A DNA stretch of 64,000 bases from positions 18,708 through 82,707 of the forward strand of contig CAWATK010000005.1 of the NCBI GenBank assembly GCA_963784915.1, read 5' to 3'. This DNA is from an uncultured Chloroflexia bacterium. GTDB taxonomy: Bacteria; Chloroflexota; Anaerolineae; Anaerolineales; Villigracilaceae. The first letter of the stretch is position 1, and every line of letters starts with the position of its first letter. Positions 2,997-4,412 of the stretch are shown piece by piece. Under the pieces are notes generated by a model. The model ran no database searches and had not been told where the DNA came from. It worked only from the letters and a program-made list of their open reading frames with translations. A program made the position numbers and the translations under genes.

Positions 2997-4412
2997 CTAG
3001 CGCGTCTTCCCCTGTCGTGCTTTCTGACGCGGCGCGGTGCCGCGAAAAGGGGGAACGGCGATGCTGACGATGCGGCACAGGTGCTCGTCGCGTAGTCTGG
3101 AGGCCAGACGTGGGTCCAGGCTGACGAGCGAATCGGCGGCGATGGTGATAACCGTTGGAAGCTCCGCGTTGGAGCGATAGCCGAACAGCTGGTAGAGCTT
3201 CTCGCGCACCCACGGGGTCATGGATTGTGTGCCCAGGTCATCCAGAATCAGGAGCCGTGTGGTGCGTATCTCCTCAAAGCGGCGATCAAACGTCGTGGAG
3301 CTGGACGGACTAAACGTGGCGCGTAAGTGGTCGAGCAAGTCCGGCACCATCACAAAAAGGGGCGGTTCGCCTTTCTGGGCAAGCTCGTTGGCAATGGCTG
3401 CGGCCAGATGAGTCTTGCCAGACGCATAGTCGCCGCTGAAGACCAACCATCCGCGGGGGTCTTGCGCGTATTCCTGGGCCGCGTTCAGGGCCTCACGGAG
3501 CGAGCGCTGCGCCGGTGGATTGAGATCCTCGTCCTTGCGGAGCGTGAAGCTTTCCAAAGTCCGGCGCGCATGCAAGTCCAATGAGGACAGCTCGGGGTGG
3601 GCGGTGTCGTCCATTGGCCGGCGGTAGTCCGGAGCCAGAATCCGCACCTGGGTCACGAGTTCGGGATCGGCCAGCCGGGAACGAATGCGCTCATCGATCT
3701 CGCCCAGGAGCAGGTTGGTGGTGACCACCGTGGGCAGCTTGTTGATGTAGCGGTAGTTCATGATCTGGAAGAGCTTCTCGCGAGCCCAGCCTGAAGCGTT
3801 CTGGGTGCCAAAGTCATCGAGCACCAGCAGCTGCGCGTTGCGGATCTCCTCGAAACGCTGCTCAAAGGTCGTATCCTCACTGTCGAAGGATGCACGCAGC
3901 GCATCCAGCAGATCTGGGACCGTGAGAAACAGGGTCGGAACGCCGAGGTCAACCGCGTAGTTGGCCGCCGCGGCAGCCAGGTGGGTCTTGCCGCAGCCCG
4001 CGCCGCCTTGCAGGAACAGCCAGCCGTTCAGGTGCTCGGCATGATGTCGCGCCTGGTTATAGGCCACCTGTAGTGAATTGGCCTGGCGCTCTCCGATGCC
4101 CGGCCGGCCATGCGGCTTGAAACTCTCAAATGTCAGGGAGCGCAGCTCGTCCAGGTGGCTTAGCGCAAACAAGCGATCCCGGGCGACGCTAGCCACCTGA
4201 CGCCTGCGGCAGACGCAGACAAACACCTCTCCAAAATCCGGGTGGCCAACCGCCACGTCCTTGCGCAAATACCCAACGCCGTGGCAGTGGGGGCAGTTCG
4301 GATCGCCCAGCGTATCGCTGAGAGGTTCAGCCGCGGATGAATTTGCGGATCTTTTCTTCAACGTCTCGCTGGCGAGCTGCCTGATCGTCTCGTCGATTCT
4401 GCTTCGCGCCAC
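2997..4412 (-). CDS. Tandem-duplicated DnaC/DnaI/IstB-like AAA+ ATPase (putative helicase loader) with an N-terminal Cys-rich motif
   Basis: There are two Walker A sites ([18 protein letters not shown]) and two Walker B sites ([16 protein letters not shown]). The two halves align over about 190 aa. The N-terminus carries CPHCHG...VCVC. It is the last gene of the dnaB operon. The start is uncertain because it overlaps the upstream gene by 86 nt. Confidence 0.8.
   Translation of the reverse strand: [471 protein letters not shown]

Follow-up and report, generated by a model that had tools for sequence, protein, structure and literature searches.

A dnaB-operon helicase loader of Chloroflexota with two DnaC/DnaI-class AAA+ modules in one chain, the second predicted to be impaired in ATP hydrolysis

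To our knowledge, all characterized helicase loaders of the DnaC/DnaI class carry one AAA+ module per chain and assemble six-fold on the replicative helicase DnaB. The locus described here raises the question of what a loader with two such modules in a single chain would be, and how it would work. It lies in a 64,000-nucleotide stretch of DNA from an uncultured Chloroflexia bacterium of the order Anaerolineales (contig CAWATK010000005.1, positions 18,708 to 82,707), which we analyzed as a whole and refer to as the window. Within a dnaB operon of this stretch, an open reading frame (ORF) of 471 amino acids encodes two AAA+ modules in tandem behind one cysteine-rich region. Our analysis makes it likely that this protein is the resident loader of the replicative helicase, and that it is a covalent pair of one hydrolysis-active and one hydrolysis-impaired module.

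The loader gene occupies positions 2997..4412 on the minus strand, begins with a GTG codon and encodes an N-terminal tail and Cys4 region, a first AAA+ module, a linker and a second module. Its translation holds all the peptides quoted in the original prediction, which had been made from the sequence of the window alone and had described the ORF as an internal tandem duplication. This description holds: compared by BLASTP, the two halves (residues 1–271 and 272–471) are 46% identical over 183 amino acids (E = 7e-48), far above chance, and both copies keep Walker A (GxxxxGKT) and Walker B (DD), as had been claimed. A trivial source of such an ORF would be an error in assembly or sequencing that joined two adjacent genes of one module each, or else a second copy decaying as a pseudogene, and errors are conceivable here as a nearby AAT-like gene (7156..8227) looks frameshifted. 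When one genome per species was scanned, a relative was encoded in 256 stretches, of which 80 were retrieved. The tandem ORF is uninterrupted, at 458–482 amino acids, in 80/80 of these Anaerolineae/Chloroflexota loci, which are independent assemblies, and in metagenome proteins that number in the thousands and come from several sources; the second module is itself highly conserved and has dozens of residues that never vary. The suspicion of an artificial fusion, which the original prediction had itself raised, is not borne out, and we reject the artifact as having a negligible chance of being correct.

The start codon has support of its own. A purine-rich, Shine-Dalgarno-like run, GGAAGGAAGAAGG, lies at 4415..4427, just 5′ of the GTG, and residues 3–17 are kept in homologs, even at loci without an overlapping upstream gene. 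For these two reasons we prefer the 471-amino-acid start to the 454- and 419-amino-acid models found in databases.

Each half was assigned to a family separately, and the proposed DnaC/IstB membership was recovered for both, which match Pfam IstB_IS21 (PF01695) and the same NCBIfam models for DnaC, DnaI and IstB. Against a Pfam gathering cutoff of 24.1 bits, the whole loader scores 111.2 bits in two stretches, the N-terminal half 63.5 bits and the C-terminal half 46.4 bits. With NCBIfam PRK08116 the loader reaches 211 bits and exceeds the cutoff of 189 because the scores of the two stretches sum, the halves alone scoring 110 and 93. The PHROG family annotated as “DnaC-like helicase loader” also matches in two stretches (4.8e-86), and the top NCBIfam, PHROG and PDB-sequence matches are all DnaC/DnaI loaders, with DnaI at E ∼1e-15. 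The loader falls under the NCBIfam equivalog cutoffs for DnaI (PRK08939, 146.9 versus 228), DnaC (PRK07952, 121.3 versus 357) and IstB (IS21_help_AAA, 130.7 versus 200). On these sequence grounds, the gene is a DnaC/DnaI-class AAA+ loader with two modules per chain. A defense-system ATPase was also considered and rejected, PADLOC giving only short matches at the level of the P loop (≤28 bits).

The duplicated unit is the linker plus the AAA+ core, and the Cys4 region is single-copy. All segments of the protein lie on the minus strand. The N-terminal tail (residues 1–35, 4308..4412) is modeled as a low-confidence helix, with a predicted local distance difference test score (pLDDT) below 50 over residues 1–32, and has a mean pairwise identity of 0.50. 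It is followed by the Cys4 (CxxC...CxC) region (residues 36–70, 4203..4307), a putative zinc ribbon with two short β strands in the model, which is the presumed helicase-binding domain. C40, C43, C66 and C68 are invariant in 81/81 sequences, and the alignments of NCBIfam PRK06835 and PRK06921 reach into this region. The cysteine-rich N terminus had been likened to the zinc domain of DnaI-type loaders; the cysteines themselves are upheld by this invariance, whereas the likeness to DnaI stands as an analogy only, since no sequence resemblance of the region to Pfam DnaI_N, the DnaC helicase-binding domain or a solved DnaI N-domain could be detected at lenient thresholds (E up to 10 for PDB).

A pre-AAA+ linker with an S-x-L...TFESF motif (residues 71–107, 4092..4202), in which L81, S85, L87, E89, L90, F95 and F98 are invariant, leads into the core of AAA+ module 1 (residues 108–264, 3621..4091). 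This core carries the full motif set, could be mapped onto DnaC and gives the Foldseek matches described below. The inter-module linker (residues 265–298, 3519..3620; mean identity 0.62) is disordered over residues 265–272 and continues into a second pre-AAA+ motif, ELSSLD...TLESF, such that residues 275–298 align with the linker of module 1; L275, S276, S277, L278, F289 and R292 are invariant in 41 close relatives. The core of AAA+ module 2 (residues 299–457, 3042..3518) keeps its motifs except for sensor I, and its sensor II is variable. Residues 458–471 form a short, variable C-terminal tail.

In module 1, the Walker A residues K142 and T143, the Walker B residues D199 and D200, the sensor I residue N233, the box VII residues R242 and R246, the intervening R244 and the sensor II residue R264 are present in 81/81 close sequences. 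The matching positions of module 2 are K333 and T334 (Walker A), D391 and D392 (Walker B) and R435 and R439 (box VII); K333, D391 and D392 are kept in 81/81 sequences of the same set, and T334 and R439 in 80/81 each. Sensor I of module 2, at position 425, is alanine in the window and, across the close set, alanine in 65 sequences, serine in 16 and asparagine in none, and sensor II (position 457) is mostly histidine. In a wider alignment of 149 sequences, the sensor I asparagine is found in 145 first modules versus 14 second modules, in which alanine (84), serine (30), threonine (11) and histidine (7) also occur, and sensor II of module 2 is arginine in 98/149. The loss of this asparagine from the second copy, originally noted for the window, is therefore a property of the family. 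Module 1 has a complete catalytic set, whereas module 2 lacks the sensor I asparagine and has a variable sensor II.

We related these positions to Escherichia coli DnaC by means of a DnaC fragment from the PDB-sequence search and a full-length sequence, of which residues 82–219 are identical to the fragment and all eleven numbered residues checked agree. In E. coli DnaC, the sensor I mutation N203A abolishes ATPase activity and compromises loading the most, whereas the sensor II mutation R237D abolishes ATPase activity and leaves loading normal; single-stranded DNA (ssDNA) is gripped by K143, F146, S177 and Y179 (Puri et al., 2021; PMC8213410). The equivalents of this ssDNA tetrad are R173, F/Y176, S/T207 and W209 in module 1 and R364, F367, T/S399 and W401 in module 2. 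They are kept in both modules in 81/81 sequences of the close set, and in at least 69/80 divergent representatives. Within box VII, R242 may be the coupler and R246 the arginine finger, an uncertain assignment that we favor because the residues follow the R-x-x-S-R pattern of DnaA and are suitably spaced from sensor II and the next strand. In divergent representatives, both modules retain the equivalent of R246 (76/80 for each), alone among the box VII arginines, and that of R244 varies. The mean pairwise identity is 0.80 for the core of module 1 and 0.72 for that of module 2, and among representatives the first modules are 0.41 and the second modules 0.35 identical. Conservation at these levels indicates that both modules are under purifying selection, and for module 2, at 0.72 versus 0.80, the signal is clear.

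The AlphaFold2 cores are confident (pLDDT mostly 80–97; mean 76 with 41 sequences and 81 with 149). Searched singly with Foldseek, the modules match Aquifex DnaC (3ECC) with a target-normalized template modeling score (TMt) of 0.78 and a root-mean-square deviation (rmsd) of 2.3 Å, DnaI (2W58) with TMt 0.70–0.71, E. coli DnaC (6QEM, chain entry 6qem_G) with TMt 0.67–0.69 and IstB (8Q3W) with TMt 0.57–0.58. The arrangement of the two cores is less well defined: residues 265–272/273 have pLDDT below 50, and the global predicted template modeling score (pTM) is 0.46 with 41 sequences and 0.54 with 149, so that the monomer model leaves unfixed the relative position of the modules, and with it the asymmetric pseudo-dimer suggested in the original prediction. 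Full-length models placed the D1–D2 proteins p97, Cdc48 and NVL on top, as might be expected of a two-tier loader in which six tandem chains per DnaB hexamer stack their modules in layers, like p97, ClpB or NSF, with both layers threading ssDNA. These matches are poor, however, with a query-normalized score (TMq) of only 0.21–0.39 and an rmsd of 10–24 Å, for which reason we take them to mirror the mere presence of two AAA+ cores. Both modules belong to the initiator clade by sequence and do not superpose on the D1–D2 arrangement of type II AAA+ proteins, and we know of no initiator-clade AAA+ protein that stacks in this way.

The architecture occurs widely, with one to four modules. A search of 5.8 billion proteins gave at least 8,000 matches, the best 120 of which are all 396–478 amino acids long and 63–100% identical to the window protein; those that are named are an “ATP-binding protein” or “DnaC” of Anaerolineales or Chloroflexota. 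Representatives at 50% clustering, 1.84 billion in number, were searched exhaustively with HMMER, which returned 645 matches with E ≤ 1e-30. Among the best 150, which were classified, 102 have two full modules, P0125 has three and P0121 four, and a further group has a single module, preceded by the Cys4 region and, ahead of that, a long, unannotated N-terminal extension. A second, independent four-module loader, P0318, has three near-identical modules of the module 1 type and a divergent last one. By the names of their sources, distant tandem representatives come from Dehalococcoidia and marine Chloroflexota metagenome-assembled genomes (the P0147, P0228 and P0149 cluster) and single-module relatives from Ktedonobacterales (P0319). 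The cultured Ardenticatena maritima encodes a two-module form, ARMA_1552 (P0386, 451 amino acids), annotated as a hypothetical protein.

Both four-module proteins share one layout, in which the Cys4 region precedes three modules of the module 1 type and a divergent last module (P0121 is encoded at positions 6001–8484 of locus L081). In the single-module relatives (P0270, at 3947–5557 of locus L082, P0259 and P0319), an N-terminal extension of ∼100–340 amino acids lies ahead of the Cys4 region; Pfam gives no match for this extension, and in P0259, the sole sequence inspected, it is rich in alanine, proline and arginine.

Which module is degenerate also differs between lineages. Among 80 two-module representatives, the commonest pattern is a canonical module 1 with a sensor-I-defective module 2 (38). 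A Dehalococcoidia-associated group (P0147, P0228, P0229 and P0238) has the opposite polarity, with a divergent module 1 that lacks an aligned sensor II and a module 2 reading KTDDNRR; another group reads KTDDSR- in module 1 and KTDDRRR in module 2, and a few proteins keep asparagine or threonine in both. Hidden Markov models (HMMs) specific to either module were uninformative for sorting modules in distant representatives, as the module 2 HMM scored higher almost everywhere, and the modules were instead compared by nearest-neighbor identities and a rough neighbor-joining tree. The nearest neighbor of a first module is another first module in 77/80 cases, and that of a second module another second module in 68/80; the exceptions include P0140, whose own two modules are 76% identical. 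The tree does not separate one duplication from several.

The loader had been placed in a dnaB operon, and this placement is upheld by both the window and its relatives. Four genes on one strand, overlapping head to tail, run in the order BFN–dnaB–DnaD-domain gene–loader. The first (6364..7008, minus strand) encodes a bifunctional-nuclease (BFN, PF02577) domain (Pfam 1.6e-39) and may belong to the same operon as dnaB and the loader, its end overlapping the start of dnaB by 4 nucleotides. The replicative helicase gene dnaB (5003..6367, minus strand; 454 amino acids) scores 535.6 bits with TIGR00665, against a cutoff of 385, and matches Pfam DnaB and DnaB_C. The gene immediately upstream of the loader (4327..5028, minus strand; 233 amino acids) encodes a DnaD-domain (DnaB_2, PF07261) protein (Pfam 6.5e-12; TIGR01446 1e-12; PHROG “DnaD-like helicase loader” 1e-16), a presumed co-loader or remodeler. 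Among the 80 loci, a DnaD-domain gene adjoins the loader in 80/80, dnaB lies upstream in 77/80 and a BFN gene precedes dnaB in 67/80, with gene order the same wherever a locus extends far enough to reveal it; the neighbors missing from some loci are probably accounted for by contig ends. Among loci from more distant lineages, the four-module locus L081 has an intein-bearing dnaB, a DnaB_2 gene and the loader, and the same operon context is found at L082 (single-module) and L083 (Dehalococcoidia tandem).

A protein of a mobile element, either the IstB helper of an IS21 transposon or part of a prophage or plasmid replication module, would share several of these properties: the top Pfam model is IstB_IS21, the loader, DnaB and the DnaD-like protein each have PHROG matches, and dna[CI] genes have been inferred to be domesticated from phages (Brezellec et al., 2016; PMC5109545). 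The IstB equivalog score, however, stays well under its cutoff, DnaB exceeds that of the replicative-helicase equivalog, and no transposase, IstA or phage structural gene flanks the operon, which sits in a chromosomal neighborhood with tRNAs, pstA/pstB-like genes and a putative phoU. No tandem form turned up among 653 phage records, 508 plasmid records and the best 80 of 553 confirmed viral-contig relatives in IMG/VR, where relatives are all single-module: matches span at most 813 nucleotides, and both halves of the query stack on one module. Mobile origin is accordingly rejected as very improbable. Because synteny is identical in 80 genomes over 60–83% identity, the tandem loader is a vertically inherited chromosomal gene across a large part of the Chloroflexota.

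These observations suggest how the protein might work. An ancient tandem duplication would have set two ATPase modules behind one Cys4 helicase-binding region, in a loader co-expressed with DnaB and the DnaD-domain protein. Both modules would take part in an ATP-dependent, ssDNA-binding loader spiral on DnaB, in which the sites of module 1 would hydrolyze ATP and those of module 2 would bind it but hydrolyze it poorly or not at all. Module 2 would still give an arginine finger to the neighboring site. In the lateral geometry that we favor as the most economical, each chain would form a pair of neighboring protomers within a single DnaC-like spiral; ∼3 loaders, and hence only three helicase-binding domains, would then serve each DnaB hexamer, and every active site would be followed by an inactive one, as in the α3β3 assembly of F1-ATPase. 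We favor this geometry because the conserved arginine finger of the defective module best fits service to an adjacent active site, and because the three- and four-module forms (P0125, P0121 and P0318) are easier to picture as longer arcs than as further tiers.

The same two lines of evidence speak against the stacked, two-tier arrangement. It would need three or four tiers for those forms, and in a ring made up of second modules alone the arginine finger would act on a site with a defective sensor I, although R439 is kept in 80/81 sequences. Stacking has points in its favor. The ssDNA-contact residues present in both modules would also fit two DNA-binding tiers, and six chains would offer six helicase-binding domains, one for each of the sites, likewise six, that E. 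coli DnaC uses (PMC8213410). On balance we regard two tiers as improbable, if far from negligible.

Another possibility is that module 1 alone enters the spiral and that module 2 docks on it in cis as an autoinhibitor or chain terminator that governs self-assembly or ATP turnover, to be freed by DnaB, the DnaD-domain protein or ssDNA. The degenerate sensor I and somewhat faster evolution of module 2 (0.72 versus 0.80 in mean identity of the cores; 0.35 between second modules versus 0.41 between first modules), together with the flexible linker, would suit such a role, and the four-module proteins, in which three modules of the first type precede one divergent module, suggest a terminal cap. 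A mere cap would have no need, however, for the ssDNA tetrad, Walker A, Walker B and arginine finger that are almost invariant in module 2, and in Dehalococcoidia-type proteins the degenerate module comes first. We consider a cap unlikely, though slightly less so than stacked tiers.

Extended to the phylum, lateral geometry would describe a concatenated Chloroflexota loader, with two (in some lineages three or four) protomers per chain, a single helicase-binding domain and alternating hydrolytic and ATP-binding sites, either module having become inactive according to lineage. This we put forward tentatively, as a proposal with somewhat less than an even chance of proving right.

Several findings weigh against the proposed active–impaired pair and its geometry. 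With pTM values of 0.46 and 0.54 and a disordered linker, the relative position of the modules is not confidently predicted. Six is not a multiple of four, which means that, given the four-module variants, a strict rule of six AAA+ modules per DnaB hexamer cannot be general. Serine or threonine at sensor I of module 2 (41/149) might still support hydrolysis, and the asparagine itself is kept there in 14/149, including Ardenticatena; the Dehalococcoidia-type proteins, with their degenerate first module, mean that a dead module 2 is not true of all lineages. Mapping of box VII is ambiguous, as hmmalign and MAFFT both put E. coli R216 on R246. The N-terminal region is without demonstrable homology to known helicase-binding domains, and, the window representing 64 kb of the genome, a further loader could be encoded elsewhere.

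The operon shows some further variation among relatives. In the window, the DnaD-domain and loader genes overlap out of frame by 86 nucleotides (4327–4412), which affects the region encoding the N-terminal tail of the loader; a similar overlap occurs in most of the closest relatives (L001–L016), and most other loci have an overlap of 4 nucleotides or none. The dnaB gene is interrupted in many loci, with split DnaB matches at L081 (3433–5259), L082 (2–3061), L034, L041, L045, L049, L051, L053 and L077. The insertion measures ∼1.2 kb in L082, where the gene encodes 1,019 amino acids, and in other loci the extra space that separates the dnaB match from the following gene is roughly 0.7–1.5 kb. 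The L081 product has a Pfam Intein_splicing match, and the insertions look like inteins; the dnaB of the window, at 454 codons, is without one. At L083 (3349–6350; 9772–10892), the DnaD-like ORF has only 109 amino acids and the operon lies ∼3.4 kb from rpsF–ssb–rpsR. Contigs assigned to “Syntrophothermus sp.” (L056) and “Bacteroidota bacterium” (L058) carry an Anaerolineae-type BFN–dnaB–DnaD–loader operon with a loader 65% identical to that of the window, and are probably mis-binned.

Around the operon, PstA-like and PstB-like ORFs and a 237-amino-acid ORF that we take to be phoU, from translations read by eye, converge from the other side, and the rest of the window consists of ordinary housekeeping-sized ORFs. 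Scans for promoter and terminator signals around the operon gave no more matches than shuffled sequence and were set aside. The AAT-like gene mentioned above (7156–8227, minus strand), encoding an acyl-CoA:6-APA acyltransferase (peptidase C45-like), appears to be split over two overlapping frames, 7196..8227 and 7156..7617, and the ORF at 7196..8227 ends in an Arg/Pro-rich, nonsense-like tail; a frameshift, a pseudogene or an error in the sequence could account for this. A tRNA-Sec gene at 14571–14665 (minus strand; Rfam 66 bits) implies that the organism uses selenocysteine, and tRNA-Pro(GGG) and tRNA-Val(CAC) genes lie at 15115–15192 and 29823–29899, both on the minus strand.

The original prediction had put the two-module loader forward as a candidate for something undescribed, and a full-text literature search likewise found no account of a helicase loader in tandem or duplicated form, although subscription-only literature may hold one. 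Brezellec et al. (2016; PMC5109545) inferred a single dna[CI] domestication in Chloroflexi, and every Chloroflexi genome in their table has a resident dna[CI] gene, single except in Herpetosiphon, which has three, with dciA absent throughout; no mention of a duplication was found in their text or supplementary files. The tandem architecture is real and conserved, and apparently an undescribed variant of the DnaC/DnaI family. It refines the picture of that single acquisition and accounts for the bare “ATP-binding protein” and “hypothetical protein” annotations that such genes carry.

How many ATP sites and helicase contacts loading requires is a mechanistic question so far probed by point mutants (PMC8213410). 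Loaders with one, two, three and four modules in the same operon form a natural series in which stoichiometry, site asymmetry and loader release could be approached, and A. maritima is at least one cultured source of the tandem form. Were the loader concatenated and alternating as proposed, loading would get by with roughly half of the ATP sites and half of the helicase contacts of the loader, and the series would amount to natural “linked-subunit” constructs, like those engineered for other AAA+ machines. The protein is still a variation on the DnaC theme, with a geometry that we infer.

Set beside known systems, each module has the AAA+ fold of E. coli and Aquifex aeolicus DnaC (6QEL/6QEM and 3ECC; TMt 0.67–0.78, rmsd 2.3–2.9 Å). 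The window loader shares with DnaC Walker A, Walker B, sensor I, the box VII arginine and sensor II, the basic/aromatic/Ser-Thr/aromatic ssDNA tetrad, an N-terminal region ahead of the ATPase and a functional link of its gene to dnaB. Unlike DnaC, it has two modules, one of them without the sensor I asparagine, its Walker B is DD rather than DE, its N terminus is a Cys4 region, and it has a DnaD-domain partner, which is absent from E. coli. The DnaI proteins of Bacillus, Geobacillus and Staphylococcus (2W58, 4M4W and 5HE8) have the same AAA+ fold and a cysteine-containing N terminus presumed to bind zinc, and in Firmicutes dnaB adjoins dnaI, much as the DnaB_2/DnaD-domain gene and the loader form a pair in the window. 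In contrast to DnaI, the window loader is tandem, has no DnaI_N match and shares its operon with the replicative helicase.

The DnaC-like proteins of PRK08116, PRK06835 and PRK06921, from Firmicutes and phages, are the best-scoring curated models, their alignments beginning at residues 16–39 of the loader. Their phage homologs adjoin DnaD-like genes. Unlike the window loader, these proteins and all phage, plasmid and viral matches are single-module. IstB of IS21 (5BQ5 and 8Q3W) belongs to the same PF01695 family and has the same initiator-clade fold (TMt 0.56–0.58), but the window loader has no IstA nearby, keeps synteny with dnaB and has tandem modules. Type II AAA+ proteins (p97/Cdc48, NSF and ClpB) likewise carry two AAA+ modules per chain, one of them catalytically weaker, but form a different clade and superpose poorly on the window loader. 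F1 α and β are separate chains and RecA-like rather than AAA+. What the window loader has in common with both F1-ATPase and the type II AAA+ proteins is a logic of duplication followed by degeneration of one nucleotide site.

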